NCBI RefSeq assembly: GCF_007860185.1
Contig: NZ_SJPY01000002.1
Location: 252,374-316,373, forward strand
Source of the DNA: Novipirellula aureliae
GTDB taxonomy: Bacteria; Planctomycetota; Planctomycetia; Pirellulales; Pirellulaceae
Length of the DNA stretch: 64,000 bases
Direction: 5' to 3'
The notes below the pieces were generated by a model that searched no databases, had not been told where the DNA came from, and saw only the letters and a list, made by a program, of their open reading frames with translations. Numbering within the stretch: position 1 is the stretch's first letter; each line of letters begins with the position of its first letter. A program made the translations under genes and the position numbers. Positions 28,601 through 43,322 of the stretch are shown here, piece after piece.

Positions 28601-30929
28601 CCATCGCTCGCGCACGTGAATCGATCCCCTTGATGATTCGACTGGCGGCCGATGCCAACGATTCAGCTCGGCGGTTTTGCTTTTCAATCAGCTGAACCTT
28701 ACAAGACTCGAAGGCCGCATAAACCTCTTCACGTCGCTCAGCCAATTGGACGACGAATTGATCAAACTCGGCAAACCGGCCTTCCAACTCTTCTAGCTGG
28801 ACCATGATTTTGGTCAGATACTCTTCGCATTTCGCTGGCGTATCCGAAACATCAAGATAACCAGCCGTGGTTTGCTGAAGCAACTTGAGCTGCGACGCGA
28901 ATTCTGCTTTTCCTTCGACGCTTACCAGTTCGCTGACTCGTGCCTTGAGCGAACTGCGTACTCGATTGAGTGATGCGAAAACGGTCCCGATCGCGTCAAT
29001 AATCTCCGTTCGTTTCGTGGCGTCATCAATGCGAAGATTACTGACCGTTTCGGTTAGTAGTTCCAACTGGGAAGCACTTTCGTCGATCGATTCGCCTAAT
29101 TTTTTCGCTTCGGTAACCGACTCAACCGCCGTGACGTTTTCGCCCGCTTCCTCCACACGTGTTTGGTAGAGATCGAGCGAACCAGGGGTCAGTAGAAAAT
29201 CGACACAACGTCGACTGATCCGCTCGGCTTTTTCAGCAGCATCCTTTTCCAGGCTATCGACAATCGCCTCGTCAACATAGCGAAGGTCTTTGAGAGCCAA
29301 GGCTGCGCCCCGTACATGCCGTAGTTTCGCTAGTGCGTCGACAAAATCATCGATCGAAGTGAATCGTCCCCGCTCGATCGTCTTCATCAAATCGGCGACG
29401 TCTTGCTGTACCTTCTTGGTTGCCGACTCCGTTTCGCGGCGAACGCGAACCACTTTTTCGAATTCGTCGACCGCTGCCGAAGCCGCATCGCGAATCTTAC
29501 CGATCGGCTCAGCAAGATGCTCGGTTTCAGCCTTGTCGATCCAAAAATAGTTATCCAGAATACTGGCCGAATTCTTGACCAAATCGACGTAAAGTCCATC
29601 GTAGTTGTCATCCTTGTCGATCAGGTTCAATAGCTCGCTGCATTCGGCCATGCCGCGAACGATTTCCTTATTGCCGATTTTGTAGAGCATCGAGTCGGTT
29701 TGATTGTCCGACACAAAATCAGCGGTCGTAAACGGTGTCTGCCAAACTTGAATCGCATGATGCTTTTGCGGTTCATTGTTCGTCTTGAAGCAAACCATCT
29801 CTCCTGCTTCGAAAAACGTTTGTCCGTTGCAAATCATCGGTGTTTCCACCGTTTGGCGAATCAGGTTATAGGCGAGTTGGACGTAGGTTCCCGATTCTGG
29901 GTTGTAGAACAGGTACAAGAAATCCTCGCCGTTGCTTGATGCGATCGTGCGTTGGTATTGCATATCGCTCAGCCCGTGATCAAACCGCTTGCATTGGCCT
30001 GTTTGTAGGTAATAGCCGCCTGGGAAGATCAGTCCTTGATCGCTCGGCAGCATCACGCAGGCGTGTGCAATTTCATCCAGTCGAATGGCGCTTTGGATCT
30101 TTCCGTTGTAGACCAAATAGCGGGTCGTCGTCTCTTGATAGGGACGGACCTTCATCAGAATCAAATTGCCAACGATCGCATAGTGGATCTCAGCATCGTC
30201 AAGTTTTTGGTCGGCGTGGTCGACGGGTTCGGCGTAAATCCCTTCGCCCGAGTCCGTATTGTTTTCGATCTTGACCGTCAAATCGCCACCAACCGTTTCG
30301 ATGAATACTCGGTCGTCGATCGAAATATGCGGATGTGTTCCGTAGTGATGTTGATCGCGAGTCGTCCGTTCCCAGCGAAACTCGTGCTGCGGCGGCACCT
30401 TCACTTCTTGTTCACTGCGGTTATCGATGTACTCGATCGAATCGGCTGTCATCCGCCATTTGAAACTCTTGATGTCTCGCGATGTTTTGCCGACGCGGAA
30501 TACCATGTGTAACATCGGGCCGGCACGAAAGAAGCGGGCGAACTTCGTGTCTTTATAAAACCGATACAGCTCGTGGAAATCGTTTCGAAAACGCTTGTCC
30601 CCGATCAGATCGAGCGGTTGTTCGTGAAATCGATTCTCACTGAATTGATAAACGGAAAAGACATCCTGCAGTTCAATCTCGTTTTTCAATCCAAATTGGA
30701 CGTTGTAGCCAAAGATAAATCGATCACCGATCGAAATCAGATCGCGAGGAATGCAATTGTGCTCCGTTGTCACCCGTTCGGTTGTGAGCAAACGTGTATC
30801 GATATTTCCAAAGACCGAGGCACGTTGCTCATTGAGCCTCTTCAATCGTCCGCGCAAATCGGTTGCCGCCTCGCGCAGACGATTGCGAAGGACCTCATAG
30901 GTGCCAGCCGCTAAAGGGGTATCCGGCAT
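25692..30929 (-). CDS. giant (1,745 aa) protein with a single MoxR/AAA_5-type AAA+ ATPase module and long coiled-coil regions
   Basis: Uninterrupted 5.2-kb ORF. Walker A LLLISPPGYGKTTLMEYIA, Walker B NVMLYLDDIQHTHPE, sensor-1-like RRVAVVMAGNPYTE (MoxR/dynein-type). The rest has no recognisable domains, with many predicted coiled coils in the central ~600 aa. Last gene of the NfeD-flotillin operon. Confidence 0.65.
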   Translation of the reverse strand: MPDTPLAAGTYEVLRNRLREAATDLRGRLKRLNEQRASVFGNIDTRLLTTERVTTEHNCIPRDLISIGDRFIFGYNVQFGLKNEIELQDVFSVYQFSENRFHEQPLDLIGDKRFRNDFHELYRFYKDTKFARFFRAGPMLHMVFRVGKTSRDIKSFKWRMTADSIEYIDNRSEQEVKVPPQHEFRWERTTRDQHHYGTHPHISIDDRVFIETVGGDLTVKIENNTDSGEGIYAEPVDHADQKLDDAEIHYAIVGNLILMKVRPYQETTTRYLVYNGKIQSAIRLDEIAHACVMLPSDQGLIFPGGYYLQTGQCKRFDHGLSDMQYQRTIASSNGEDFLYLFYNPESGTYVQLAYNLIRQTVETPMICNGQTFFEAGEMVCFKTNNEPQKHHAIQVWQTPFTTADFVSDNQTDSMLYKIGNKEIVRGMAECSELLNLIDKDDNYDGLYVDLVKNSASILDNYFWIDKAETEHLAEPIGKIRDAASAAVDEFEKVVRVRRETESATKKVQQDVADLMKTIERGRFTSIDDFVDALAKLRHVRGAALALKDLRYVDEAIVDSLEKDAAEKAERISRRCVDFLLTPGSLDLYQTRVEEAGENVTAVESVTEAKKLGESIDESASQLELLTETVSNLRIDDATKRTEIIDAIGTVFASLNRVRSSLKARVSELVSVEGKAEFASQLKLLQQTTAGYLDVSDTPAKCEEYLTKIMVQLEELEGRFAEFDQFVVQLAERREEVYAAFESCKVQLIEKQNRRAESLASAASRIIKGIDSRARAMESSEEIAAYFAGDLMVEKVRDIIRQLGELGDAVRVGDLESRLKTIREDASRQLKDRQDLYEDGGDVIRLGRHRFAVNTQTLDLTTVLRDGEICLHLTGTQFFEPLQNEDLSNAKDLWDQELISENGDVYRSEFLAVDLFESSVFTDSEAVTPAWMNSQLQDRFREGYSKGVHDLDAMQILKSLLEFSRSIGLLRHSPSVRTASLLWFNKLLDSKQRKAMTDWIAGFAKLAKAFPEAKPAVEFRHRLSELAEADGLLWKPIFSQNVTPELMADYLFEQFVESPRRGVVSSRAADLHHSFAESLPEETREKLVAASIKANESSPTSAFILSRNWADAFLSKHSDSDDLDPAASYLDELAWLIYNAGPTSMKVVKAAVAKKLESMAGSHSRITRGVMSLNYHEILDRVRHYRSDVVPRYRKLHETKSRLVDDARDSMRLEEFKPRVLTSFVRNQLLDEVYLPLIGDNLAKQMGVAGADKRTDRMGLLLLISPPGYGKTTLMEYIANRLGVVFMKINGPAIGHGVTSLDPAEAPNAAAREEVERLNLALEMGDNVMLYLDDIQHTHPELLQKFISLCDATRKIEGVRNGKTRTYDLRGRRVAVVMAGNPYTESGERFQVPDMLSNRADVYNLGEIIGDSADAFEMSYLENCLTSNRTLSPLATAPPEDARAIIRAAGRDSLEGIELESNLSVDQVREMFEVIRKLLRVRDVVLKVNRAYIRSAAQADAYRTEPAFKLQGSYRNMNRIAERVAGVMNERELQTLIVSTYEQDAQTLTTDNEANVLKFKEIMGILTAEEKERWDAIKYAYVESVRMQGMDSEDQAGQLMRQLASMRDGLESIRQVISKAIAIGREGAEERMDTRLDLLRQSLSTSASQLSDTLTATSKNLEQISTQQALSPPEQKVVVQYRVPREIAELVKGQFHLMQEWLRPLLNESLDNSRDLEGLKKQLEKMLQQYDEAEASFEPRTPPPDR

Positions 30930-30935
30930 GTTGGA

Positions 30936-33065
30936 CTACCCTTTCTTGCCATTTGACTTCGCCACTTTGGCCTCCAACATCGTACTGGCCTTCCGGTCGG
31001 CAATCGCAGCCGTTCCGGCCACGCCGAGCAAGCTAGTCAATTGGCTACGGACATCCTCGCTCTTAGCCATGCCCATCATCTTGGCAATCAGGGCGGCGAT
31101 CGAGAGGTCTTTGACGCCGTCTGTATCCAGGTTAAAACTGGAAACCATCTCGTTCAGCTGGCCACGGAAATAGTCGGCATTTCCATCAAAGAAGGTGTCC
31201 TTGATATCGGTTGCCACTCGGCTGTTGTAAACGAAGCGGTCGATTGCCTTTCCACCTTTGACCGCAGAAGTGATTTGGTCGAAGAATTCGCCATCGCCAC
31301 CAACGATATCGATTCTTGCCGCACGCAGTGCTTCACCAACGACACCCGCTTGGCTTTCGGCAATCCCGCGTTGAGCATCGATCGCCGCGATTTCGACGGC
31401 TTTTTCTTTGTCGAGTTTGAGTTTGAACTCTTCGTGTTCTTTGCCGACACCGTCGAGTTGTTTCATCGCTTCGGCCTTCTCGGTAATTCCGATTGCTTCG
31501 CTGCGATACTTCTCCAGGTCGACGTTCGCTTCGGCCAGCCCTTGTTTCTGGTTCGCCGCGGCGCGAGCTTCGATCCCCTTTGCTTCGGCCATCGCTTTCT
31601 TCTCTAAAATGCTTGCTTCGGCGGTCCCTTCCTTTTCCAAACTGACCGATTTGGCTTCTTGCACTTTCGCTTCGGCCAATCCAGCGGCAGCGGCCCTTGC
31701 AGCTTCCGCTTCGGCGAGCATTTTGGTAGCGGCCGTTTCTTTTTCCGCCGCGTCGCGTTTTGCTTCCGCTTCGATGCGGACTTTTTCGGCCAACAAGGTA
31801 CTCGCATCCTTTTCGGATTGAGCTTGTTTGGTGACGCGAATCAGTTCCTCTTCCGCTCGCATCTCTGCTGCGGTCACTTGTACCTTCTTCAGCCGGTCGG
31901 CTGCCGCGTGTTCCTGCGTGTCTTTGATCCGTTCTTGTTCTTCGACGACCGCCCGTTCGACGGCGACTCGTTCGCGGATCACTTCTTGGATGTTACGTTT
32001 TTCGACCTCGATCGCCTTTTCTTTTTCGACTTCGGCAACGCCGACGACTCGTAGTCGTTCGGTCATTTCTAAGTCGCGATCGCGGTTGACTCGTTCTAAT
32101 TCGACGGCGTCGGTCTTTTCCTTGTTTCGCTGTGCGACCAAGACTTGTCGAGCTTTGTTTTCTTCGGCAATCCCCAATTCCTCTTCGGTCGCAATCCGTG
32201 CTCGCTCAGCTTCGAGCCGTTGTTCTTCACGAACCTTTGCAGCGGACGCTTGTTCGCGTGACGTGATCTCGGCGATTTCTCGTGTTTGTTTCTCGACCGC
32301 TTCGACACGTTGGCGTTCGAGTTCGAGGATGGTTTCTTCCGCTTCGACGTCTTGCTTTTTAAGTATCTTCTCTTTATCGCGAGTGAATTGGTTTTCCTTG
32401 ACCTTTTCGCCAGCCGTCAATTCGGTAATCTTCTTGATACCTTCAGCATCGAGAATGTTGTTCGGGCTGAGTTTTTCGATCGGCGTTTGTTCCAAGTAGT
32501 CGATCGCCGCATCATCCAATTGGTAACCGTTCAAATCGGTACCGATAACCTTCAAAATCTCTTCTTTGAACTTGTCTCGCTGGTCGTAAAGATCGACGAA
32601 GTCAAATTGTTTTCCGACCGTCTTGAGTGCTTCACTGAATTTTGCATCAAACAATTCGCGAAGCGTGTCGATCTCGCTACATCGTTTCGCGCCGATCGAC
32701 TGGGCAACCTCTTTGATTTGTTCGTTCGAACTGTCGACGCGGATAAAGAAGGCGACCTTGATGTCCGCTCGGATGTTGTCTTTACAAATCAAGCCCTCAC
32801 TGCCTTGCCGGGCGATCTCGAAGCTCTTCAGCGTCAAGTCCATGAACTCGTAGCGGTGCAACAGCGGGATGATGAATGCCCCATTATTCGTCGAGACATT
32901 CAAGCCGCCAGCACCCGATTTGACGATCGCACGGTCGGGCCCGACGATGACAAAACATTTCTTAAAGGTAATCATCGCCGCAAAGATCGCGACAACACCA
33001 ATCACCACGACCACAATCCAAAATTGTGTCCAGCTTATCTCGGCAAGAAAAAACAGTGAGTTCAC
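30936..33065 (-). CDS. flotillin / SPFH (band-7) domain protein, YqiK/FloT-like
   Basis: N-terminal TM helix, SPFH core (FVIVGPDRAIVKSGAGG...DLTLKSFEI...KDNIRADIKVAFFIRV), long E/A/K/R-rich coiled-coil flotillin region (AEAEAARAAAAGLAEAKVQEAK), C-terminal GG-rich tail. 709 aa. Confidence 0.8.
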   Translation of the reverse strand: MNSLFFLAEISWTQFWIVVVVIGVVAIFAAMITFKKCFVIVGPDRAIVKSGAGGLNVSTNNGAFIIPLLHRYEFMDLTLKSFEIARQGSEGLICKDNIRADIKVAFFIRVDSSNEQIKEVAQSIGAKRCSEIDTLRELFDAKFSEALKTVGKQFDFVDLYDQRDKFKEEILKVIGTDLNGYQLDDAAIDYLEQTPIEKLSPNNILDAEGIKKITELTAGEKVKENQFTRDKEKILKKQDVEAEETILELERQRVEAVEKQTREIAEITSREQASAAKVREEQRLEAERARIATEEELGIAEENKARQVLVAQRNKEKTDAVELERVNRDRDLEMTERLRVVGVAEVEKEKAIEVEKRNIQEVIRERVAVERAVVEEQERIKDTQEHAAADRLKKVQVTAAEMRAEEELIRVTKQAQSEKDASTLLAEKVRIEAEAKRDAAEKETAATKMLAEAEAARAAAAGLAEAKVQEAKSVSLEKEGTAEASILEKKAMAEAKGIEARAAANQKQGLAEANVDLEKYRSEAIGITEKAEAMKQLDGVGKEHEEFKLKLDKEKAVEIAAIDAQRGIAESQAGVVGEALRAARIDIVGGDGEFFDQITSAVKGGKAIDRFVYNSRVATDIKDTFFDGNADYFRGQLNEMVSSFNLDTDGVKDLSIAALIAKMMGMAKSEDVRSQLTSLLGVAGTAAIADRKASTMLEAKVAKSNGKKG

Positions 33066-33808
33066 GATGATTGCTCCGAAGGTTGAAGAGAGACTTTGTA
33101 GATGCGTTTCCGTTTGTCAAATCCGATGATCCAAACCTCGGTCCCCTTGGGGATCGTCGGACCATCAGTACGAATGTTTAAAAGTAGTGGTGCGGCCTCG
33201 GCGCGAAACTTCGCTTGGCCGAATTCAGGGGTTGCTTCCGTGGTCGTCACCTCACACGTGGCACCCATTAAATGGTTCTCGTCGTATGCTGGACCTTTGG
33301 CAAATGTTCCGACAAGCGGCCCGGTGGCTAATTTCGTTCCCGCAACCGCAATCACGACGTTGCGAATGGAAAGCAGGACACTGGCCCCTACCGCCGGCTC
33401 ATAGCGATTTGAATCGAAGCCATGCCACAACAGGAAAGACACCGACCAAAATATCGTTGCAAAGATGCCGCCCCAAACGATAACCGGAACGCGGCCAAAG
33501 TTGGTCCAGCGAGCTGAAACCGCTCCGATACCGTGCCAAAAATCCCATTCGACCACCGAATCAAGATCCAAACCAGGATCCAAACCAGGATCGAGATCGA
33601 CCTCGGGGACATCAAACCCGAAATCCAACAAACCTATCATCGCCAATGCGGTGTAGGCGATCAACAAGCACACCAAGATCGATGCGGGCCAAATCGGACC
33701 GACGAACATGTTGTTGACCGGATCGGTAATCGAATCCGCGAAGTTCATGGATGCATTGACAAATGAATGGAAAACGAGCCCCGCCACGCAGAGGGGTGTA
33801 CTCAGCAT
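33062..33808 (-). CDS. NfeD/YqiJ-like membrane protein (flotillin partner)
   Basis: 248 aa, 4-5 TM helices, then a soluble C-terminal ~80 aa (GATCEVTTTEATPEFGQAKFRAEAAPLLLNIRTDGPTIPKGTEVWIIG) resembling the NfeD OB-fold. Overlaps the flotillin start by 4 bp, as in yqiJ-yqiK / yuaF-floT pairs. Confidence 0.5.
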   Translation of the reverse strand: MLSTPLCVAGLVFHSFVNASMNFADSITDPVNNMFVGPIWPASILVCLLIAYTALAMIGLLDFGFDVPEVDLDPGLDPGLDLDSVVEWDFWHGIGAVSARWTNFGRVPVIVWGGIFATIFWSVSFLLWHGFDSNRYEPAVGASVLLSIRNVVIAVAGTKLATGPLVGTFAKGPAYDENHLMGATCEVTTTEATPEFGQAKFRAEAAPLLLNIRTDGPTIPKGTEVWIIGFDKRKRIYKVSLQPSEQSS

Positions 33809-34109
33809 AATAGCAAGGCCTGCAGAGAACCAATCCAGGGCGCAAAAGCGGTATGGATTTTGAAGAATAGTGTGGGGGTCAGTGCGCGCAGGCTGATTCC
33901 ATTAGTTTTTACGACGCCGAACCGCCCTAAGTTACTCCAACACGGCTAAAGAGATCGCTCGACGACCGGTAACAAAGGCAGCCGTTCGAATCAATCCTCG
34001 GCATCGATCGTTCCATCGAATAGCAAATCGAATAGCAAACGGTCCGCCGTCATCGTCGATGGCTGCGGAGGATTGGAAGGCCGATAGGGATTGATGGGCG
34101 AGTCCCGAT

Positions 34110-34685
34110 TCACTTTAGCGGTTTCATGCCCTGATGATCGCGGAGGCGATTGAGCCATGCGAATGCGGCAGGGACCGAACGGACAAAGTTAACGAGTGAT
34201 GTCGTGCTCGTCCCCCACTCTTTTGCCACGAAACGGGTCTGTCCGCCCGCAGTATACAAGTCGTTTAACAACAATGCTAAAACCGCGGGTTTGTCCTCGT
34301 TGTTATCATTCATTCGTTTCAGAATTTGACGATACCGATCGCGGAGACTAGCCTCGATCGGATCAGTCGGCGTATCCAATTTTGGCTGACTGCGAATTTC
34401 GATTGCCAGTCGGAAACGAAGCCGCTTTAACGCGATGCGACGATTGTCCGCTTGACTACGTCGCTCGGTCGCCTCGCCAACGATTTGCGAGGGACGGTGT
34501 ATCAAAAACACGCCAGAGCTGGTTTTGTTTCGATGTTGCCCGCCTGGTCCGCTACGCCGCTGAGTTCTCAGTTCACACTGCTCAAGTAAATCCTTTGGCG
34601 ATTGTACCGCCGGATGCACGCCAGCTATCGTGAGAACGTCCATTGGCAACGTCTTCTTCGGTTCGCTCGATTCGCTATCCACCAC
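34110..34685 (-). CDS. arfB: ArfB-like peptidyl-tRNA hydrolase (class I release-factor GGQ domain protein)
   Basis: GGQ motif in RRSGPGGQHRNKTSSGVFLIHRP followed by a basic C-terminal tail (RRIALKRLRFRLAIE). 191 aa, longer than typical ArfB at the C-terminus. Confidence 0.6.
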   Translation of the reverse strand: MVDSESSEPKKTLPMDVLTIAGVHPAVQSPKDLLEQCELRTQRRSGPGGQHRNKTSSGVFLIHRPSQIVGEATERRSQADNRRIALKRLRFRLAIEIRSQPKLDTPTDPIEASLRDRYRQILKRMNDNNEDKPAVLALLLNDLYTAGGQTRFVAKEWGTSTTSLVNFVRSVPAAFAWLNRLRDHQGMKPLK

Positions 34686-36708
34686 TCACAAACTCGCTTA
34701 GCATATTCACGAAATCGGCTGCCAAACTGCGTGAAGGCAATTTCACCACTCCAACGCAAGAACGCCCGATCGAATCGAGCAATGGTTCATGCGGAAGAGT
34801 TGGCAGCGGACATATCACTCGATAGACGGCATCGCGAGTGACGCTCGTTCGATCCTCGCTCATTTGGGAAACCGATTCGATTTTCGTATCGACCCATTCA
34901 CGTTGACCGTAATCGATTCTCACTCGAATCGCGGTACCGCGCGTCACCCAGCGTTGGTCTTTGGCATCGAGCCAAAACATCGCTTGACGCTCTTCGTTCG
35001 TTGCGATTCGGCAAAACGGTTGGCGTGAATCATAGACCGTACCTGCGAAACTGGCCAACCATACGCTCTGATTCGGTTCGTCAACCGGTGTGGTTGCTTG
35101 AGGCGGTATGACGACTCCAGATACCGGCGAATGCACCTGAGTTTCTGCCAATCGTTTTTTCGCTTTGTCGAGTAACGCCCCGACGGACTCTTCGGCAGCT
35201 TGTAGTGTCTTCCACTGTTCGGCGACCTTGGGCCGATCGAGTGCATCGCGACGTGCCAGCTCGCCCCGCATATTCGCCAATCGCAATTCGCCCTCGAGTC
35301 GAGTAATCTCGATTCGCGACGTTTCATCGGTTAGTAGCGCCAATCGGTCTCCGGCGGCTACATGGTCACCGTATTCCGCTTTGATTTTTGAAATTTGGCT
35401 TGAGGGTGGTAAAAAGACGCTCGAGGAGTTTGCCGCATCAATGATTCCTGCTACTTCGCGATAACGCGGTAATGGTAGAAACAAAATCAACAATAGCAAA
35501 ACGGCGGGGGTCGATACGATCGCAAAACGGCGCCACTTCGATACACCCATCCAACTCCCCTTTCCTTGCAAGACACTAATAGAAGCCTTTGTTTTTGCCG
35601 CCATCAACCGTACCGCTACGATACAAACCAAGCCGATTCCTAATACGCTCAAATGAAGCAAATTGGCGACATGAACGATCAACGCGGCAATAGCGAATAG
35701 AACGGTCGTTCGATAGATCGTCGATGCGATGTGATAGCTCGACAACCCAATCGCTATTTTATCTGAGCGGCGGATTTTCTGGTACTGTTTTCCCGCAATC
35801 CTCGCAATGATCGTCGACTCGAACGCTTCACGCGCTTCGCGACGCAAATTCGTACTACCGACGGCATCCAACAACACATAGTAACCGTCATATCGCATGA
35901 GCGGATTGGCATTGAACAGCACGGTGCTGATGCCACAAACCAAGATTAGATTCATCGCATACATTCGTGCCGCCGGATCATCCGCTAATACCCAAACCCA
36001 GGTTGCGGAAGCCGCAATAATCAATTCGACATAGATGCCAGCCAACATGACTGCCGCACGCCGCACCGGGTTCGCAATTCGCCAAACATCGGTCACGTCG
36101 CAATAGGGGCATGGAACGCCGCAAAACAGATAGACACCTACCGATTTACTCTCCGCACCCATCCGTCGACACATGACCGCATGCGCCAATTCGTGGAGGA
36201 CTTTTGTGATCAAAAAAGTGATGCCGATCCCAAACGCATTTGCACTGCGAAGGTACACAGGCAACAAGCGAAGAGACGCGACCCACGCTTCCGATCGACT
36301 TACCAGTACCGCTATCGAAGCGACAATGATTGACATCCAAAATAGAATCGCGACCGGTGAGAAAAGGAATCCGCTAACCGGAGCGAGTCGTCTTGCGATG
36401 CCGTCAATACTGCCTAGCGGAATCTGAATCGCTAAAAAGTTAAACGGCTTGGATGGATTGGATGGAGACTCGAGTCGCTCGCAGGTCCAATCCGCCACTT
36501 TGGCTTGAGTCGACAAGGACGGGTCGACGCGGTCACCGTGAAGTTGTTGCCATGCGTGCTCGCTTATCCTGGAAAATTTCCCGCTAACGTCATCGATTAC
36601 CATTCGATAAGCTCGGGCGTAGCCTTGAACGGATACGCTACGCAGATCCCTTCGAATGAGAACGGAGGGAACGGAGCGAATCTCGTTTGGTAAAATCGAA
36701 TCGGCCAT
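34675..36708 (-). CDS. membrane-embedded M50-like zinc metalloprotease domain fused to a HlyD-type periplasmic adaptor domain
   Basis: HEXXH inside a TM segment (LITKVLHELAHAVMCRRMG), several further TM helices. C-terminal ~300 aa has coiled-coil plus beta-barrel-like HlyD features (AEYGDHVAAGDRLALL ... VHSPVSGVV). 677 aa. Confidence 0.55.
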   Translation of the reverse strand: MADSILPNEIRSVPSVLIRRDLRSVSVQGYARAYRMVIDDVSGKFSRISEHAWQQLHGDRVDPSLSTQAKVADWTCERLESPSNPSKPFNFLAIQIPLGSIDGIARRLAPVSGFLFSPVAILFWMSIIVASIAVLVSRSEAWVASLRLLPVYLRSANAFGIGITFLITKVLHELAHAVMCRRMGAESKSVGVYLFCGVPCPYCDVTDVWRIANPVRRAAVMLAGIYVELIIAASATWVWVLADDPAARMYAMNLILVCGISTVLFNANPLMRYDGYYVLLDAVGSTNLRREAREAFESTIIARIAGKQYQKIRRSDKIAIGLSSYHIASTIYRTTVLFAIAALIVHVANLLHLSVLGIGLVCIVAVRLMAAKTKASISVLQGKGSWMGVSKWRRFAIVSTPAVLLLLILFLPLPRYREVAGIIDAANSSSVFLPPSSQISKIKAEYGDHVAAGDRLALLTDETSRIEITRLEGELRLANMRGELARRDALDRPKVAEQWKTLQAAEESVGALLDKAKKRLAETQVHSPVSGVVIPPQATTPVDEPNQSVWLASFAGTVYDSRQPFCRIATNEERQAMFWLDAKDQRWVTRGTAIRVRIDYGQREWVDTKIESVSQMSEDRTSVTRDAVYRVICPLPTLPHEPLLDSIGRSCVGVVKLPSRSLAADFVNMLSEFVSGG

Positions 36709-36711
36709 CGT

Positions 36712-37689
36712 TTATCGCCAATCGGTCATTCGAATTTTCGCCGACTTGATCGCCGCATCACTGGCGTCAATCCTCATACGAACACTTGTTCCTGGCACCA
36801 ACATCCATTGTGTCATCGGCGAATCGGCGTTCCCATCGATTTGATTGATGACCTCCGCGTGTAATCGATACCGGCCACCCGGTAACCGCTGTGGATCGGA
36901 AGACAGAACGTTGCCCCGGAGCACTTTTTCGTTTCCATTGCTTGAATCGGTAAAGTGGACACTGACGGGCAATCCAGCACAATGTTTGGGCGACAATTGG
37001 TCTTCGCGAACGAGGGCATGAACATGCAATCGATCCATTTTGGCGACCGTCGCAATCGGCTGCCCCTTTTCGATCCATTCACCACTCGACCGAGCGATTT
37101 CGACGACGGTGCCCGCGAGGGGTGAGCTGATTCCAAGATTCTCGATTTGGTCGTCAAGCATGGCCAGATCCGCTTCGCGGAGTTGGACTTCGACAAACAA
37201 TTCACGTCGACGTTTTTCGGCTTGGGCAACCTCAAGTTCGCCACGTTCGACCGCCAATCGCAAACGGCGAAGGTGGCTCATAGGAACCGCACCATTCACA
37301 TCGTTATAAATCGAGCGGTTGGAGTCGAGCTCCGCCTTGGCTTCGGCGAGTGCCGTTTCGGCATACTTTTGTTCAACGTCGTCACCGGCAGCTTGGCGAG
37401 CATGCTCGAGACGCAATGACGAAGCACGGCGACGAATTTTAAGTGTTCGATCGTCAAGTCGTGCAAGTGTCTCATTTTCATTGACTCGCTGGTTAAGTTT
37501 CACTGCGATTTCGGCAATGCGACCCGACTCCAAACTCGGCACTTCAACCTCATCCGCAAAACGCACCACACAATCGGTTACTTCGACGATGCTGCTTTGG
37601 GCGCAGAGGATCGTTGGTGATGCGGCGAGCACGAGCGAAACGATCAAGCGAACTCGCAGAGCTTGTCTTGTTAGCAGCAGTCTGTTCAT
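36712..37689 (-). CDS. HlyD family secretion / efflux adaptor protein
   Basis: Signal-anchor N-terminus, biotinyl-lipoyl-like hairpin (RIAEIAVKLNQRVNENETLARLD ... SSPLAGTVVEI), central coiled coil. 325 aa. 3 bp from the downstream M50-HlyD gene. Confidence 0.55.
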   Translation of the reverse strand: MNRLLLTRQALRVRLIVSLVLAASPTILCAQSSIVEVTDCVVRFADEVEVPSLESGRIAEIAVKLNQRVNENETLARLDDRTLKIRRRASSLRLEHARQAAGDDVEQKYAETALAEAKAELDSNRSIYNDVNGAVPMSHLRRLRLAVERGELEVAQAEKRRRELFVEVQLREADLAMLDDQIENLGISSPLAGTVVEIARSSGEWIEKGQPIATVAKMDRLHVHALVREDQLSPKHCAGLPVSVHFTDSSNGNEKVLRGNVLSSDPQRLPGGRYRLHAEVINQIDGNADSPMTQWMLVPGTSVRMRIDASDAAIKSAKIRMTDWR

Positions 37690-37723
37690 ATTTGGATTTC
37701 TGGTTCAATTTGATCGTAGCTTA

Positions 37724-37900
37724 GGTTTCCAGCCTGGACTCCAATTTTTCCCAGGCTGGAAGCCTAGGCTACGTGAATCGGTTAATGCCTGAACGCCAAT
37801 TTCCCCCAGGCTGGAAGCCTAGGCTACGTGAATCGGTTAATGCCTGGACTCCAATTTTCCCAGGCTGGAAGCCTAGGCTACGTGAATCGGTTATTGCCTG
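37724..37900. repeat. ~54-bp tandem repeat x3 carrying the GCCTGGACTCCAATTTT and CCAGGCTGGAAGCCTAGG motifs
   Basis: ccagcctggactccaatttttcccaggctggaagcctaggctacgtgaatcggttaatgcc repeated three times with variants, in the 223-bp gap between two co-directional HlyD genes. The GCCTGGACTCCAA core recurs at 1594-1624 (reverse), 9043-9060 and 25668-25690. Confidence 0.85.
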
Positions 37901-37912
37901 GACTCTAACGGT

Positions 37913-40147
37913 CTAAAAATACATCTTCAAGTTTGCTCGAATCATTTCGATGGCATCGTAAAACACCACGTTAACCAGTGGCAGATCCTCACATTGGAAC
38001 ATGACCCGAATTGGAGTCCCGTTCACGGAACCACGGTTTTGAAGCGAGCGGCATAGCTCCATCGACTTCTCGGATGATTCGATTTGCAGCACGACTGCTT
38101 TTGCATCGGTTCCGTCCTTGGTGTTGCGGATCACCGGACCGATCGATTGCATCGTCAATGGCAACGGTTGGTCTTTTGCATCGTTCATCGTTGCGACTGC
38201 GGACAGGACGCCTTTTTGGTTTGCATGATGGACGGGATCGATTCGGGACAGTGGCACACGCGCGTCAACGAACCATCGAGTCTCATTGCCAATAACTTCC
38301 AATAAAGCATCTCCGCGATTGACGGGTCGACCTTGTAAACGCTGCTCGATTTGCCACGCATCCACGACACCATCGTTTGTCGCTCGTATGACCAGCGATT
38401 GTTTCACTTCTTCGAGATCGGCTAATTGTTGATCAATGGTTTGCAGCTCTTCCGCCAACAAACTTCGCTCACTTTGCAATTGTTCGCTACGGTCGGTTCG
38501 GTTGGAAGCCGTATCGACGAGAGCGGTCATGAAAGCTGATTGCTTCTGAATCAGAATCGATCGCCGGCCGATCAACGCGGTCATTTGTTGCTCAAGCGTA
38601 GGATCGCTCATCGACAACAGTTTCTGACCGCTTGTAACCGATTCCCCATTTGCGACATGGATCGATTCGATGACGGCCGACCTTGGCGCAAAAACTCGTT
38701 GCACGTCTGCTGGCCGAAGTACCGCCGGTGCAGTCACTCGCATCGGAACGGGGTAGAGTGCTGCAACCGCCACAAGAGCCATGAAGAGGATGCCAACGAC
38801 GGGGTTGAACCACTTCGCACGACGTCGCGAATGGATTTGGTTCGCCAATGCCCCGATCACGCGCCCCATGGGAATCGCTTCGAGCATTCGACGATGCCGA
38901 ATCGCTAACCCCGTGTGCAATGCGATGCGGCAGAGCGGTTCGCTTAGCAAATCGTCGAGCGGTTCCGAACCGCTGCGGACGAATCCTACCAAGCAAACGG
39001 CATCGCATTCTTCTGAACTGGCAACGAAACGAACTTCTAAATCGGAAGATCCTCCCTCTTGTTCGTCCGGAAGCATAATACACGAGGTTGCGGGACAATA
39101 GTACTCGTTGGCGACCGCTTCGATCTGTTTCGCTGCACTGCCGTTCCGGTCGATCGTACCAACATGACTCACCGCAACCAATTTGCAATCGTTTGCTTCG
39201 ACGTAGCACAATGCAACCCGGTCAAGGGGAAAAATCTTGGCGACCGAGTCGACCGCGAGCATTTCGATAGAACGGCTGTTGGTTTGGGCATGAAGCGAAG
39301 CAATGATCGCATCGACTTGGTCGTTTACACGTGCTTTGTGATCGAGACAGCGAAGTTGATCGTTGCGCAAAAACTCGCCAGCTAAATCTGCCATTTGAGC
39401 GACGAAACGCAGGTAGCCACGCTGGGTCGCGATCCCGCAATCGGGTTCAAGAAAGACTTCGAGGACATACGAAGGATGCGGCGAGATCGGATTGGACTCG
39501 ATCGGTACGACCGCCGCAGCCACATGGGTTGGATTGGCTGGAAGAGCGGAATCGGTAGCCCCGGGAGTTGCCGGAACAACGACCGGCTGTCCCGAGGCAA
39601 TCACTTCCGCAATCATTTGCAGGTGAGTGTTTGCCGATTCAGACGGAATCGTTTGGTCTGTCACCTTGCCAATCCGATGAGCAACCGAAAACGTCCATTC
39701 ATCAGTAGATCCGTCTCTCCGAGACGGACAGCCCGGCACCGTGGTTTCGTCTCTCCGAGACGGACAGCCCGGCACCGTAGGTTCGTCTCTCCGAGACGGA
39801 CAGCCCGGCACCGTAGGTTCGTCTCTCCGAGACGGACAGCCCGGCACCGTAGGAGCGTCTCTCCGAGACGGACACTCCCTCGTATCAACATTCCAAATCA
39901 CAACGCCTTCTGCTGCCATAGCCACCAGAATACGGTTGGCTAGCATTCCTAGAAATTGGTGACGCGAGGCATGACTGCGAGCCGCCAGTGCCACTTCGCG
40001 AACAATGTCGGCGATTTCACGCCGCGTTTCTTGGACGAGTGGGTTATTTTCGCCCGTCGACCGCTGCGGATGCGGCGCAGCGTTACCACCTGGAGCAGGT
40101 CCAGAAGGAGAAAAGACGAACGGTTGGTCGTGAACATCCGCTTGCAC
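37913..40147 (-). CDS. HlyD family adaptor protein with large N-terminal cytoplasmic GAF-like region and an in-frame 12-aa x5 repeat
   Basis: 744 aa. N-terminal ~450 aa is soluble with GAF-like blocks, then a TM helix (VVGILFMALVAVAALY), then a HlyD-like periplasmic domain (coiled coil LAEELQTIDQQLADLEEVK; beta-strands). Residues ~90-150 are CPSRRD(A/E)PTVPG x5, encoded by the palindromic 36-bp repeat. Confidence 0.5.
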   Translation of the reverse strand: MQADVHDQPFVFSPSGPAPGGNAAPHPQRSTGENNPLVQETRREIADIVREVALAARSHASRHQFLGMLANRILVAMAAEGVVIWNVDTRECPSRRDAPTVPGCPSRRDEPTVPGCPSRRDEPTVPGCPSRRDETTVPGCPSRRDGSTDEWTFSVAHRIGKVTDQTIPSESANTHLQMIAEVIASGQPVVVPATPGATDSALPANPTHVAAAVVPIESNPISPHPSYVLEVFLEPDCGIATQRGYLRFVAQMADLAGEFLRNDQLRCLDHKARVNDQVDAIIASLHAQTNSRSIEMLAVDSVAKIFPLDRVALCYVEANDCKLVAVSHVGTIDRNGSAAKQIEAVANEYYCPATSCIMLPDEQEGGSSDLEVRFVASSEECDAVCLVGFVRSGSEPLDDLLSEPLCRIALHTGLAIRHRRMLEAIPMGRVIGALANQIHSRRRAKWFNPVVGILFMALVAVAALYPVPMRVTAPAVLRPADVQRVFAPRSAVIESIHVANGESVTSGQKLLSMSDPTLEQQMTALIGRRSILIQKQSAFMTALVDTASNRTDRSEQLQSERSLLAEELQTIDQQLADLEEVKQSLVIRATNDGVVDAWQIEQRLQGRPVNRGDALLEVIGNETRWFVDARVPLSRIDPVHHANQKGVLSAVATMNDAKDQPLPLTMQSIGPVIRNTKDGTDAKAVVLQIESSEKSMELCRSLQNRGSVNGTPIRVMFQCEDLPLVNVVFYDAIEMIRANLKMYF
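39712..39885. repeat. 36-bp tandem repeat x5 (CGTCTCTCCGAGACGGACAGCCCGGCACCGTRGKTT) lying in-frame inside the GAF-HlyD CDS
   Basis: Copies start at 39712, 39748, 39784, 39820 and 39856 (last degenerate). The core CGTCTCTCCGAGACG is the same palindrome as in the intergenic arrays at 19237, 59143 and 61593. Confidence 0.9.
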
Positions 40148-40601
40148 GAATTGGTTGGCCTAAGCGAAACAGAAGAGAACAGGAAAACAACTCACGTTTT
40201 CCATAGCAAAACGGTCTGCTCACTCGCAACCCTCAAATACGCGGGAATTTAGGGACTCCCGGACGAACGCGACCACGGGGGCGTCTACAGAGAAATTTGC
40301 TCGAAGACGAGAAGAATGGTGGGTGAAAGCTGAATGTGCAGCCCTTGTTCGCTCATGAACGCGAATCGGCGGTTTGAGACCGGCTTGCCGCACATGCTCT
40401 GGCAATCTTCATTGACTAAGCTGGTAATCTGATGAAGCGTGCCGGTTATGCGGCGTGTTCCATCAAAGCGGGGTGCTAGCAATTCGGGTTTTGCTGATTT
40501 TGCTAGGTAGGAATCTCGGCTACGCCGATCATTTTAAGAGTAGCCGATTGGTAGGCACTTACGCTTTAGACACCTAGAATCTCGAAACGAATTTCGAAAC
40601 C

Positions 40602-41474
40602 GTGGCAAACGCTCGCGAACGACCGACGCTATTTCGCTGGTTCTTTTTGATCGGTCCAGCGCGGACGAGTGAGTTTTTGGGTGAGCAATTCCTAAGCCGA
40701 CTTGGCACGATCGTTTCGATCTTGGCAATGCTTTGGGCAACGGTTCGATTGGCGATTCGCCCCGCTTCCTGGACTCCCCCGATCCGCAGTATTTTTGCCC
40801 GTCAACTCTTGTTTAGCAGCGTTGACGGGGTCATCGTCGCGGTGCGGTTCGGAGCCGCGGTCGGTGTATTGATTATTGTCCAAGCTGCGCTTTGGGTCGA
40901 CGCGTTCGGCGTCACGACGGACGCGATTGCCCCGATTCTATGGCGTGCAATCGTTCGCGAATTGGCACCATTACTAGCGTGTCTGGTTGTGATCGGGCGC
41001 AGCGGGATCGCGATTTCGACCGAACTGGCCACGATGCTCGTCAACCACGAAGTCGACGTCCTCGACGCACAGGGGATCGATCCGATGACAGCGTTAGTGA
41101 TGCCGCGGATTCTCAGTATGGTGATCAGTGTCTTTTGTTTGGCAATCATCACTGCCACATCGATGATTGTGACGGGCTATGTGATTGGTTGGTCTGTGGG
41201 TGCGATCCATATCCCCTGGACCACCTTTCTCGATGGTATCTTTCGTGAATTCAATTCACTCGACTTGCTATTTTTCGTCTCCAAAACGATCATTGCTGGC
41301 GGCTTTGCTGGAGCCATTTGTTGCATCGATGGACTGAGTGTTGGCAGTAGTGTCACCGACGTTCCGCGGGTGTCGAGCCGGAGTGGAATCCGGGCGTTAA
41401 CGGCCGTCTTTGTTGTCTCTGCCGTGTTGTCCATATTGATTTATGGACGCATCCTCGTATTCAAAGTATTGTAA
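40602..41474 (+). CDS. mlaE: MlaE-family ABC transporter permease
   Basis: 290 aa, five TM helices, conserved MlaE/YrbE blocks (LFRWFFLIG ... VIGRSGIAISTELATM ... DAQGIDP). Confidence 0.8.
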   Translation: MANARERPTLFRWFFLIGPARTSEFLGEQFLSRLGTIVSILAMLWATVRLAIRPASWTPPIRSIFARQLLFSSVDGVIVAVRFGAAVGVLIIVQAALWVDAFGVTTDAIAPILWRAIVRELAPLLACLVVIGRSGIAISTELATMLVNHEVDVLDAQGIDPMTALVMPRILSMVISVFCLAIITATSMIVTGYVIGWSVGAIHIPWTTFLDGIFREFNSLDLLFFVSKTIIAGGFAGAICCIDGLSVGSSVTDVPRVSSRSGIRALTAVFVVSAVLSILIYGRILVFKVL

Positions 41475-41487
41475 CGAGCCGCACAGC

Positions 41488-42216
41488 ATGACAACCATCC
41501 AAACAACGATTCCAAACGAAAAGCCGATCGTACTGAGGTTATCGGATGTTTCTTTTCGTGCAAGTCGCGAAAGCGACATTCATTTCAATCGATTGACGAT
41601 GACGGTACGTCAAGGCGACTTGGCAATGATCCATCTTGACCGCTCCCAAAAGGTCCGCGAAACGGTTTCCGTTTTAGAGGGATTGATTCAGCCCCATGAA
41701 GGCACGGTGCTATTCGAGCAAAACGATTGGCTTGGTGACGATTACGACCGCCATTTTAGAATGAGAAGTCGGATTGGCCGCGTCTTTGAGAATAATGCAT
41801 GGATCCAAAATCTGAACATTGCCGAAAACGTCACACTGGCGCGGCGTCATCACCAAATGGAGCCGAAATCGATTGATACCGATCTGACCGTTTGGCGAAC
41901 ACGGTTCGACGTGGCAAACGTTCTGAATCAGCGTCCCGCCTTTGTTGAGCCATCGACACTACAAGTCTACCAGTGGATTCGTTCTCTGATATCAAAGCCT
42001 CGACTACTCTTGCTCGAACGCCCAATGCAATCGGTTTCACCATCCCGATTGACGGCACTTGTTAACGTATTGAATGAGGTTCGAATGGCGGGAACTGCCG
42101 TGGTCTGGTTCACGAGTAATCCGGAGGACGCAAGCGGCAAATTCGCTGATCCGCAGAGTCACTACACGCTAGCGGATGGAAAACTTGTGCAAACCGAAGG
42201 AGCATCGAGTCCATGA
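41488..42216 (+). CDS. ABC-ATPase-fold protein with degenerate catalytic motifs (MlaF-like pseudo-ATPase)
   Basis: Position, length and overall pattern match an MlaF-type nucleotide-binding subunit, but every catalytic motif is changed. Walker A is HLDRSQKV instead of GxSGxGKS/T. The Q-loop Gln is Glu (VFENNAW). The signature is PSTLQVYQ instead of LSGGQ. Walker B is LLLLERP instead of hhhhDEP. There is no H-loop His. ATG at 41488 chosen. Confidence 0.55.
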   Translation: MTTIQTTIPNEKPIVLRLSDVSFRASRESDIHFNRLTMTVRQGDLAMIHLDRSQKVRETVSVLEGLIQPHEGTVLFEQNDWLGDDYDRHFRMRSRIGRVFENNAWIQNLNIAENVTLARRHHQMEPKSIDTDLTVWRTRFDVANVLNQRPAFVEPSTLQVYQWIRSLISKPRLLLLERPMQSVSPSRLTALVNVLNEVRMAGTAVVWFTSNPEDASGKFADPQSHYTLADGKLVQTEGASSP

Positions 42217-43322
42217 ATGAACCTTTGCGTTTGCGATACACCAACCAAATCGTTGGCGTATTCTTGCTGATCTTGCTGCTATTCGTGATCGGTCTGTCCG
42301 TGCTACTGTTGCAGGCGACCGACTATTTCGTAGAGCAGGATTTGTACTGGATTGAAATCGCGCAAGAGGACGTCGACGATCTCTATAAGGGAGCGGATGT
42401 GATGATTCTCGGCGAACGAGCTGGTGCGGTCGACAGTATTCGCTACATCGACGGCAGCGACCGAATTCGGGTAAACCTAAGAATCGATCCGACGAAAAGC
42501 GCTGATATCTTTACCGATTCGGTCGTCTTGCTACAGCGGAGGTTTGGACTGGGAAACCCGATACTTGTCATCCGCCGCGCTCATCGCGATGGGGCTAGCG
42601 AAGCACAATCGCTACCTGCGGGAAGCCGACTAGAAAACTTTCATGGTGAGGACGACCGAATCGACCAAATGGCTCGCGAGGTCGCGACGGTCAGCGATTC
42701 GGTTAGAAAAATCCAACAAAAACTCGACCCCACATTGACAGGGATTGAACAGTCAGCGAAGCGTTTCACAAGCTCGCTTGACGATTCCGTGGATCCCGCT
42801 CTAGCCAGTACTCGTCGTGCATCCGATTCCGTTCGAGTAACGAGCGAAGCGGTTCGCCCAGAGGTGGTCGACACGATGCAAACGGTCCGCACGGCCACCG
42901 AAAATCTAGAATCACGCATCGAAACTCTAACGGGAAAAATTGAACAACTGGTCGAAAAGGATGTACGCCGAACGCTCGCCGATGTTCGTGAATCAACCGA
43001 CGACATTAGCGAGGCCGCTAAAGGTGTCAACCAGAGCACTGAAACCGTTAGCGAAGATATCGCCGAGACGCTCGCCGCACTGCGAGTTGCCGCCGAACAG
43101 GTGCAACAGCTTGCTACCGAGACACGCGAAGTGGTACGAATGGTTCGAAAGGAAGCGAACGATCTACCGGGTACAACACAGCGAGTTAACGATACCGTCA
43201 GCGACACACAAGAATTGGTCGGCGAAGTTCGTAGCCACTGGCTGCTACGTCGATACCGAGATCAATCGACTGCGTCAGAGCAATTGTCACCATCGAGTGT
43301 GCGCGGAGGTTCCGCCAGATGA
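42213..43322 (+). CDS. MCE/MlaD-family periplasmic substrate-binding protein with long helical C-terminal extension
   Basis: N-terminal TM anchor (IVGVFLLILLLFVIGLSVLLL), MCE beta-barrel region (GADVMILGERAGAVDSIRYIDGSDRIRVNLRID), then ~200 aa of helical heptad-like sequence. Overlaps the upstream gene by 4 bp. Confidence 0.7.
   Translation: MNEPLRLRYTNQIVGVFLLILLLFVIGLSVLLLQATDYFVEQDLYWIEIAQEDVDDLYKGADVMILGERAGAVDSIRYIDGSDRIRVNLRIDPTKSADIFTDSVVLLQRRFGLGNPILVIRRAHRDGASEAQSLPAGSRLENFHGEDDRIDQMAREVATVSDSVRKIQQKLDPTLTGIEQSAKRFTSSLDDSVDPALASTRRASDSVRVTSEAVRPEVVDTMQTVRTATENLESRIETLTGKIEQLVEKDVRRTLADVRESTDDISEAAKGVNQSTETVSEDIAETLAALRVAAEQVQQLATETREVVRMVRKEANDLPGTTQRVNDTVSDTQELVGEVRSHWLLRRYRDQSTASEQLSPSSVRGGSAR

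Follow-up and report, generated by a model that had tools for sequence, protein, structure and literature searches.

Introduction

Type I secretion systems (T1SS; HlyB-HlyD-TolC, LipBCD) and the tripartite efflux systems MacAB-TolC and EmrAB-TolC are built with HlyD or membrane fusion protein (MFP) adaptors, which carry lipoyl, hairpin, and beta-barrel domains and work with an ABC, MFS, or RND transporter and a TolC-family channel. Here, a locus with adaptors of the same kind and no such transporter was analyzed in a 64-kb stretch of DNA from Novipirellula aureliae (contig NZ_SJPY01000002.1, positions 252,374 to 316,373), the whole of which is called the window. An NCBI protein of this species shows 100% identity to the product of gene C. 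The locus consists of four genes on the minus strand, A to D. The first three, referred to as the trio or cassette, encode HlyD-type adaptors, that of A being joined to tandem GAF domains and that of C being fused to an M50 intramembrane metalloprotease, while D encodes a GGQ protein. The M50 domain, not a pump, is with good confidence the inner-membrane partner of the adaptors in an export module. The fuller reading, which is favored on balance, is that the locus provides the inner-membrane and periplasmic core of a conserved pump-less export machine, which would be linked to TolC, process leaders, and take large or giant surface proteins as cargo.

Several described systems share part of this design. 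As in T1SS and tripartite efflux, TolC-family genes occur in related cassettes, and the large, repeat-rich surface cargo resembles that of T1SS adhesins. Unlike in those systems, however, an ABC, MFS, or RND transporter is lacking within and around the cassettes, the adaptors number three, all different, and a SecA paralog is the only ATPase in some cassettes. Moreover, the signal of classical T1SS substrates is C-terminal, in contrast to the putative cassette signal, which is N-terminal. The M50 family includes RseP and SpoIVFB, and such site-2 proteases (S2P; also M. jannaschii 3b4r) have HExxH and NxxPxxxxDG in transmembrane (TM) segments in common with protein C, which differs from them in its C-terminal adaptor domain. 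Peptidase-containing ABC transporters (PCATs) with HlyD partners (CvaAB-TolC, NHLP/Nif11 export) follow the same logic of a leader-cleaving protease coupled to an adaptor/TolC route, but with a cytoplasmic C39 cysteine protease and an ABC transporter instead of a membrane-embedded M50 enzyme; the NHLM_micro_HlyD model gives weak matches to A and B. The closest relatives of the M50 part of C are the leader-processing M50 proteases of peptides that are synthesized ribosomally and modified post-translationally (RiPPs), namely daptide HExxH, EpeP/YydH-LiaK, and TglG/TmoG. Like C, they are polytopic HExxH proteases for a ribosomal product bearing a recognition sequence, with PqqD or RiPP recognition element (RRE)-type domains present in family members. 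Unlike them, C is fused to a periplasmic adaptor, and its candidate substrates, instead of short precursors, have 800 to 16,000 aa.

In Planctomycetota and several further phyla, each genome carries genes for dozens of giant proteins. The 2025 centenary review of Planctomycetota lists giant genes and proteins and mentions neither a secretion system nor a signal peptide (PMC12673574), and a 2026 giant-protein preprint deals with canonical T1SS parts. In our literature search, which left most subscription journals outside, the cassette, the fusion, and the function of the N-terminal motif treated below were not found described, and “LEPR-XLL” appeared in the searched literature as an annotation label only, in two papers.

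Architecture of the Trio

The locus comprises the following genes.

37913-40147, minus strand: gene A, tandem GAF - TM - HlyD-type periplasmic adaptor, 744 aa
36712-37689, minus strand: gene B, short adaptor of the HlyD type, signal or anchor at the N-terminus, 325 aa
34675-36708, minus strand: gene C, fusion of M50 intramembrane metalloprotease and HlyD-type adaptor, 677 aa
34110-34685, minus strand: gene D, GGQ (RF-1 domain) protein of 191 aa, C-terminal domain conserved

These four reading frames and the 11-bp overlap between C and D are as the original prediction, an earlier reading of the same DNA, had given them; the start of C lies 3 nt past the stop of B. The prediction that the operon holds no ABC, MFS, RND, or TolC-like gene was also confirmed, since no ABC, MFS, RND, or OEP gene was found inside it, and OEP/TolC, SecA-like, and DUF3467 genes are absent across the 64-kb window. 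Domain searches bore out the predicted domains in part: HlyD in A, B, and C and M50 in C score above the Pfam cutoffs, whereas GAF_3 in A scores below. The G+C content of the cassette is the same as that of its surroundings.

Protein C carries the features listed here.

36364-36708, minus strand: N-terminal region of C, residues 1-115, cytoplasmic, defined by the family alignment
36181-36195, minus strand: HELAH zinc-binding/catalytic motif, residues 172-176
35884-35913, minus strand: NANPLMRYDG, second M50 motif with the third zinc ligand Asp, residues 266-275
34678-35463, minus strand: periplasmic HlyD domain of C, residues 416-677

The Peptidase_M50 model (PF02163) is matched by C at 29.3 bits (gathering score 27.2) and by all 16 of the C family members aligned, and HlyD_3 is matched at 25.3 bits (cutoff 22.2). 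Approximately seven hydrophobic helices can be observed in C. The HELAH motif closes a moderately hydrophobic helix, GIGITFLITKVLHELAHAV (hydropathy 1.25), and thus lies in or at a TM helix; together with NANPLMRYDG and the PF02163 score, this supports the predicted M50 protease with its motif in a membrane helix. Residues H172, E173, H176, N266, N268, P269, D274, and G275 are invariant in the 16 diverse family members, so that the active site of C is intact and under selection. The HExxH region gives a weak profile match to the M. jannaschii S2P structure 3b4r (E 0.012). The N-in start and the odd number of helices would place the C-terminal adaptor in the periplasm, and the profile of this adaptor matches MacA at E 1e-18. 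In curated family models, C reaches 129 bits (E 2e-37) with daptide_HExxH (NF041824) and 34.9 bits (E 1e-8) with YydH/LiaK (NF058609), below the respective cutoffs of 300 and 225; judged from these scores, the two are the closest curated relatives of its M50 part and not the same family. In the 16-member alignment, residues 1-115 form a shortened counterpart of a PqqD/RRE-like domain found in distant family members, and PqqD is weakly matched in 2 of the 16 planctomycete members.

The domains of protein A are as follows.

39287-40042, minus strand: GAF domain 1 of A, residues 36-287, repeat insertion included
38876-39277, minus strand: GAF domain 2 of A, residues 291-424, from the model and a weak profile match to 6bhn
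38756-38809, minus strand: single TM helix of A, residues 447-464, hydropathy 2.31, a helix in the model
37916-38752, minus strand: periplasmic HlyD/MFP domain of A, residues 466-744

HlyD_3 is matched by A at 50.8 bits (Pfam cutoff 22.2), while the type_I_hlyD model TIGR01843 gives 40.8 bits, below its cutoff of 208.65. The AlphaFold2 (AF2) model of A, built from a 64-sequence alignment, has a mean predicted local distance difference test (pLDDT) score of 86.2. By Foldseek, it matches MacA, MexA, AcrA, EmrA, and ZneB at E values of 1e-11 to 1e-10, which demonstrates the adaptor fold. Regarding the cytoplasmic part, Pfam GAF_3 gives 17.4 bits, under the gathering score of 27, and the profile of A barely reaches the GAF chain 6bhn among PDB sequences (E 0.86). 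GAF is nevertheless matched in 15 of the 64 A orthologs and GAF_3 in 9 of the 64 (E<=0.01; best approximately 1e-6), and the GAF fold was found in A. Unlike the tandem GAF modules of PDE2A/PDE5/PDE6, cyanobacterial adenylyl cyclase, and phytochromes, that of A is joined through one TM helix to a periplasmic adaptor, not to a catalytic output. In databases, A is annotated as “HlyD family efflux transporter periplasmic adaptor subunit”. Protein B is matched by HlyD_3 at 55.9 bits (cutoff 22.2) and by RND_mfp at 61.8 bits, and has a hydrophobic segment at its N-terminus.

Conservation of the Cassette among Planctomycetes

By an exhaustive HMMER search, the C family has 10,189 representative proteins when the limit is E<=1e-3; at E<=1e-30, 1,769 representative clusters remain. 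Among the 150 matches listed, the C homologs are mostly full-length M50-HlyD fusions of 650-750 aa. A genome scan with C yielded more than 572 loci, the best 80 of which were taken. These 80 belong to Planctomycetota throughout, with the labels Ca. Kuenenia, Gemmataceae, and Thermoguttaceae among them, and include paralogs inside Novipirellula itself. The order A-B-C(-D) recurs with unrelated flanks in Crateriforma, Roseimaritima, Novipirellula maiorica, SH139, and metagenome-assembled genomes (MAGs). Upstream adaptors were counted in the 58 planctomycete loci that extend 4.2 kb or more upstream of C. A long adaptor is present in 52 of the 58, with an N-domain homologous to that of A in 43 of those 52, a short adaptor in 43, and both in 42. 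A-B-C is a conserved cassette, and this is the unit.

What surrounds the cassette was assessed by a Pfam scan of 97 immediate flanking genes, in which no ABC, RND, or MFS family recurs. The commonest families are SecA-like (7), DUF481 (4), and OEP (3). When neighbors were clustered, SecA paralogs were found at approximately 11 loci, DUF3467 at approximately 11, OEP/TolC at approximately 9, and Ser/Thr kinases at approximately 6. The conserved trio, the changing flanks, and the lack of a pump family in these 97 genes are in line with the predicted pairing of the adaptors with an M50 protease instead of a pump, and the TolC/OEP genes beside related cassettes support the export module that had been proposed.

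Near approximately five planctomycete paralog cassettes (L010, L017, L046, L049, L083), a standalone GAF-like gene lies divergently upstream of A. The protein has approximately 350 aa and no Pfam match, with a GAF-like N-terminal part and a Cys/His-rich C-terminus, and may be an accessory regulator of the cassette.

Cassettes on Proteobacterial Plasmids

By tblastn of annotated plasmids, C homologs were detected in 84 records, the commonest genera being Escherichia, Azospirillum, and Citrobacter. At all six of the annotated loci examined, the M50-HlyD gene and two more adaptor genes lie directly downstream of a gene for a giant repeat protein, on the same strand. The giants at these six loci have 4,400-16,200 aa and are of several kinds.

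E. coli NZ_CP081687: Ig-like giant, 13.4-kb gene
Azospirillum brasilense: Ig-like giant, preceded by a DUF4347 gene
Pontibrevibacter: LEPR-XLL giant, 31.8 kb
Methylosinus: LamG-like giant, 26.5 kb
Pseudosulfitobacter: LEPR-XLL giant, 38.7 kb
Variovorax: tandem-95 giant, 48.7 kb

TolC-family genes occur in four of the six operons and DUF3467 in two. Furthermore, a truncated SecA paralog of 640-675 aa is encoded in three of the six cassettes.

L169, 10860-12845: truncated SecA paralog, proteobacterial plasmid
L172, 13937-15853: truncated SecA paralog, proteobacterial plasmid
L173, 14789-16813: truncated SecA paralog, proteobacterial plasmid

One of these is annotated as “DEAD/DEAH box helicase” and two as “prepilin peptidase”. 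The Pontibrevibacter copy reaches 585 bits with SecA; over 615 aa, the Methylosinus copy shows 52% identity to it. The RefSeq labels of the cassette SecA paralogs are likely misannotations.

The domains of the proteobacterial proteins were compared with those of the planctomycete ones. The two long adaptors tested, both from SecA-type cassettes, are GAF+HlyD proteins with GAF scores of 40.7 and 50.1 bits (cutoff 22.4). An N-terminal PqqD domain exceeds the Pfam cutoff of 23.4 in two of the five M50-HlyD proteins tested (24.1 and 28.7 bits, in Pontibrevibacter and Methylosinus), which are the partners of these two long adaptors, and a third, at 22.8 bits, falls just below it. It follows from these results that GAF-HlyD and M50-HlyD proteins co-occur across phyla with accessories like those of the planctomycete paralogs. 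The co-occurrence across genomes that the original prediction had proposed to look for was thus found, in Planctomycetota and Alphaproteobacteria.

On Azospirillum brasilense plasmid p2 (L180 / L170), the cargo candidate is split into a gene with a DUF4347 domain and an overlapping gene with Ig-like domains. In the E. coli giant, the N-terminal region past the LESRQLF motif resembles DUF4347 by eye, and this domain may come first among the folded modules that follow the leader.

An N-Terminal Signature on the Giant Neighbors

In all five of the readable giant N-termini, a basic stretch precedes (A)LE[PSA]R-x-[LMF][LF], which is of the LEPR-XLL type. The sequences are RFALESRQLFDGA, DPMEPRVLLSADP, MEALEPRFLLSADP, DTLEPRVLLNAD, and AMALEARYMFDAA. 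Proteins of 800-2,160 aa encoded beside planctomycete paralog cassettes carry the signature as well, in the forms LEERRVL, LEDRRLLA, LESRQLLA, and LEPRRVLSADP. For counting, a regular expression with a basic-residue filter was used because the NCBIfam LEPR-8K model, with 24 positions, is too short for most N-termini. Nine large open reading frames (ORFs) bearing the motif, approximately seven of them convincing, were found in 1.10 Mb of cassette loci, whereas the control DNA, 0.67 Mb of D-centred loci and the window, yielded none (Poisson P approximately 5e-5, with a pseudocount). No ORF with a basic N-terminus and LE[PSA]RxL[LF] is present in the window; the likely cargo class, giant proteins, is visible only through comparison with other genomes.

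Protein D

In the original prediction, the last gene of the operon was taken for arfB, a name that D does not bear out. The RF-1 domain (PF00472) is matched at 56.9 bits (cutoff 35), and D shares with ArfB/YaeJ, ICT1, PrfH, and C12orf65/mtRF-R the RF-1 GGQ peptidyl-tRNA hydrolase domain without codon-recognition domains.

34536-34544, minus strand: GGQ motif of D, part of GPGGQHRNK, which is invariant in 23 family sequences

With the ArfB model NF006718, D gives 32.2 bits, below the cutoff of 100, as do all 23 of the 23 family members; with the PrfH model TIGR03072, it gives 53 bits, under 166.65. The GGQ domain scores closer to the class-I release factor, PrfH, and C12orf65 types than to ArfB/ICT1. 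In addition, the C-terminal 90 aa of D form a conserved domain of its own where ArfB has a basic tail. No credible profile match was found for these 90 aa, the sole matches being to the designed repeat protein Tako8. The ArfB assignment is excluded by the model cutoffs and the domain content, and the family is widespread without the trio.

D follows C, often with overlap, in Crateriforma, Roseimaritima, N. maiorica, SH139, and several MAGs with unrelated flanks. It follows C in just 6 of 72 cassette loci, orthologs are located elsewhere in Stieleria varia and Rhodopirellula sp. MGV, and no M50-HlyD gene is present in more distant D-centred metagenome loci (approximately 40 with at least 2.5 kb upstream of D). 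This distribution excludes D as an obligate member of the cassette; it is co-transcribed with the trio here, and the linkage is lineage-specific. Among the D-centred loci (L085-L167), the recurrent neighbors are TsaD-like in eight and HflX GTPase-like in five, by sequence, and no RtcB-type partner is found among the recurrent neighbor families. The TsaD- and HflX-like neighbors suggest a role in translation or ribosome rescue for a widespread, uncharacterized GGQ family that has a C-terminal domain of its own.

The most likely view of D is that of a general, ribosome-associated peptidyl-tRNA hydrolase, which joined the operon in one Pirellulaceae lineage. Its identity among orthologs is 50-60%, against 35-45% for A or C, as expected of a housekeeping factor. 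Alternatively, D could be a functional part of the machine that frees stalled nascent chains of very long cargo at a co-translational exporter. The adjacency to C despite unrelated flanks and the invariance of the GGQ motif and surrounding residues would fit this role, and an N-terminal signal and SecA paralogs are in keeping with co-translational targeting. Given the rarity of the linkage, the D genes without C, the translation genes that accompany D elsewhere, and the degree of conservation, however, such a role is doubtful.

Proposed Mechanism and Alternatives

According to the mechanism proposed here, the adaptor domains of A, B, and C would form one periplasmic tube like that of MacA/HlyD, docked on a channel of the TolC type, with the M50 domain of C standing in for the pump at the inner membrane. 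The cargo, as judged from relatives, would be large or giant surface proteins beginning with a basic stretch and LE[PSA]RxL[LF]. The PqqD/RRE-like N-domain of the M50 subunit may bind the leader, as RRE domains bind RiPP leaders. Subsequently, the M50 site would cut the leader at the membrane during export, and the protein would exit through the adaptor/TolC conduit. For cleavage coupled to export, the closest parallel is the M50 protease EpeP (review PMC10885120) and, in logic, the PCAT/HlyD/TolC systems. Energy may come, in some cassettes, from a dedicated SecA paralog, and the tandem GAF of A is a plausible candidate for a cytoplasmic ligand gate. For the N. aureliae cassette, the cargo and the outer-membrane channel would be encoded elsewhere in the genome. 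A broader reading can be advanced only tentatively: the trio may be the core of a distinct, unnamed diderm secretion pathway, in which giants are exported through TolC without an ABC transporter, LEPR-XLL being recognized in an RRE-like manner and removed by M50. Equally tentative is the range that such a pathway might have, at least Planctomycetota and Alpha-, Beta-, and Gammaproteobacteria, including E. coli plasmids, with some versions driven by a SecA paralog with a DUF3467 partner.

Several points weigh against the export machine as outlined. Beyond domain architecture, its support is guilt by association. The window copy has neither a motif-bearing protein nor TolC or a SecA paralog as a neighbor, and the same holds for its close orthologs (L002-L008, L087); the assignment of cargo here therefore relies on homology to paralogs at approximately 25-30% identity. 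No energy source is evident at the window locus. The PqqD/RRE-like domain is undetected in C itself, where the region is shortened, and the single-sequence AF2 model of C, with a pLDDT of 39, is too poor to show an S2P fold. Regarding the signature, the NCBIfam LEPR-8K model gave a single match of 14.8 bits, below its cutoff of 17, and the planctomycete enrichment consists of small numbers of a regular-expression motif. Lastly, we know of no M50 protease through which a folded or giant protein has been shown to pass.

The alternative that survives best is maturation and export of a small peptide (RiPP or bacteriocin), in which the M50 enzyme would trim the leader of a short precursor and the adaptors would channel the product, as has been proposed for EpeP/YydH and the daptide protease. 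Among NCBIfam models, the M50 part matches the two RiPP models given above best, and PqqD/RRE-type domains are present in family members. Furthermore, a review (PMC10885120) describes EpeP, the epipeptide M50 protease, as believed to carry out both the cleavage and the export of its peptide. Both model scores are nevertheless far under their cutoffs, and no radical-SAM enzyme, cyclodehydratase, or other tailoring enzyme recurs in the 97 flanking genes. The small precursor-peptide ORFs that the original prediction suggested seeking nearby were not seen in the gaps 37690-37912, 40148-40601, and 33809-34109. The short ORFs of these gaps were rejected as precursors, since they overlap tandem repeats or have no conserved counterpart; no small ORF is conserved in the intergenic gaps, and the recurrent neighbor is a giant protein. 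This alternative is therefore considered unlikely.

Still less probable is regulated intramembrane proteolysis, i.e., S2P-like cleavage of a membrane-anchored regulator, with HlyD as scaffold or sensor and GAF as cytoplasmic input. It would accord with the M50 membership of RseP and SpoIVFB, with GAF as a classical sensor domain, and with the Ser/Thr kinase genes near approximately six paralog cassettes. No sigma/anti-sigma pair recurs beside the cassettes, however, and neither a PDZ nor a CBS domain was found in C by Pfam, unlike in site-2 proteases. The three MacA-like adaptor domains and the TolC genes in related operons point instead to a conduit.

A canonical transporter pairing with the adaptors from just outside the operon would have spoken against the original prediction, and one operon had to be considered in this respect.

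40602-43322, plus strand: Mla-like operon (MlaE / ABC-like / MlaD), divergent, 455 nt upstream of A

That the trio are ordinary efflux or T1SS adaptors for a pump encoded elsewhere, such as this operon, with the M50 fusion incidental, is highly improbable in spite of the proximity of the operon on the other strand and the efflux label of A, since the operon is not beside the orthologous cassettes in Crateriforma, Roseimaritima, and others, its ATPase-like protein (41443-42216) lacks Walker A, LSGGQ, and Walker B and is, from its sequence, probably catalytically dead, Mla systems work with MlaD and not with HlyD adaptors, no pump family recurs in the 97 flanking genes, and the M50-adaptor fusion is conserved in thousands of clusters. 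With the Mla-like genes out of synteny elsewhere and their ATPase-like protein degenerate, no canonical transporter stands just outside the operon as a partner.

If the pump-less cassette is the exporter of the giants, a concrete machine would be available for testing, together with a candidate N-terminal signal for secretion or processing. A tractable experimental entry point is offered, since cassette and giant cargo occur together on E. coli IncF plasmids and in Azospirillum. If true, a protease could take the place of a pump as the element around which HlyD-type adaptors are arranged, which would add to the known kinds of tripartite envelope machine, and leader recognition of the RiPP type (RRE plus M50) would be linked to protein secretion. 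New names would then be needed for thousands of proteins of these cassettes that currently carry the label “HlyD family efflux transporter periplasmic adaptor”, “PqqD family protein”, “prepilin peptidase”, or “DEAD/DEAH box helicase”.

Neighboring Genes and Repeats

In the divergent Mla-like operon, MlaE is matched at 145 bits, and the MlaD/MCE protein carries a long coiled-coil extension. On the other side of the locus, downstream of D, three genes occupy 25692-33808 on the minus strand. The first (33062-33808, minus strand) encodes an NfeD-like membrane protein with a weak NfeD match (E 0.007). The second encodes a 709-aa coiled-coil protein with an N-terminus that is SPFH/flotillin-like by eye, for which Pfam gave nothing, and the third a protein of 1,745 aa with a P-loop motif near the C-terminal third. 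The three may constitute a flotillin/NfeD membrane-microdomain operon with a giant ATPase partner. The NfeD/flotillin-like genes were rejected as part of the cassette, since they are not kept beside orthologous cassettes.

Two tandem repeats, both identified with Tandem Repeats Finder (TRF) and each unique in the window, distinguish this copy of the cassette.

37732-37905, no strand: tandem repeat of 55 bp x 3.2 in the gap between A and B
39705-39874, minus strand: in-frame tandem repeat of 36 bp x 4.7, 12-aa unit VPGCPSRRDEPT

The first repeat occupies the gap of 223 nt between A and B, genes which abut or overlap in orthologous loci, unlike here. No terminator-like site was seen on the coding strand of this gap, and the repeat may serve to separate the translation of B from that of A, or it may hold a regulatory element. 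The second repeat adds 58 residues in a hairpin loop of GAF 1 of A, a strain-specific insertion by which the module differs from the known tandem GAF modules. It is absent from all 63 aligned A orthologs, one of which is 82% identical, and is disordered in the AF2 model, with pLDDT <50 over residues 94-145. It may be the result of recent slippage or an inserted repeat element. Each 36-bp unit holds a short hairpin, GTCTC-TCC-GAGAC.

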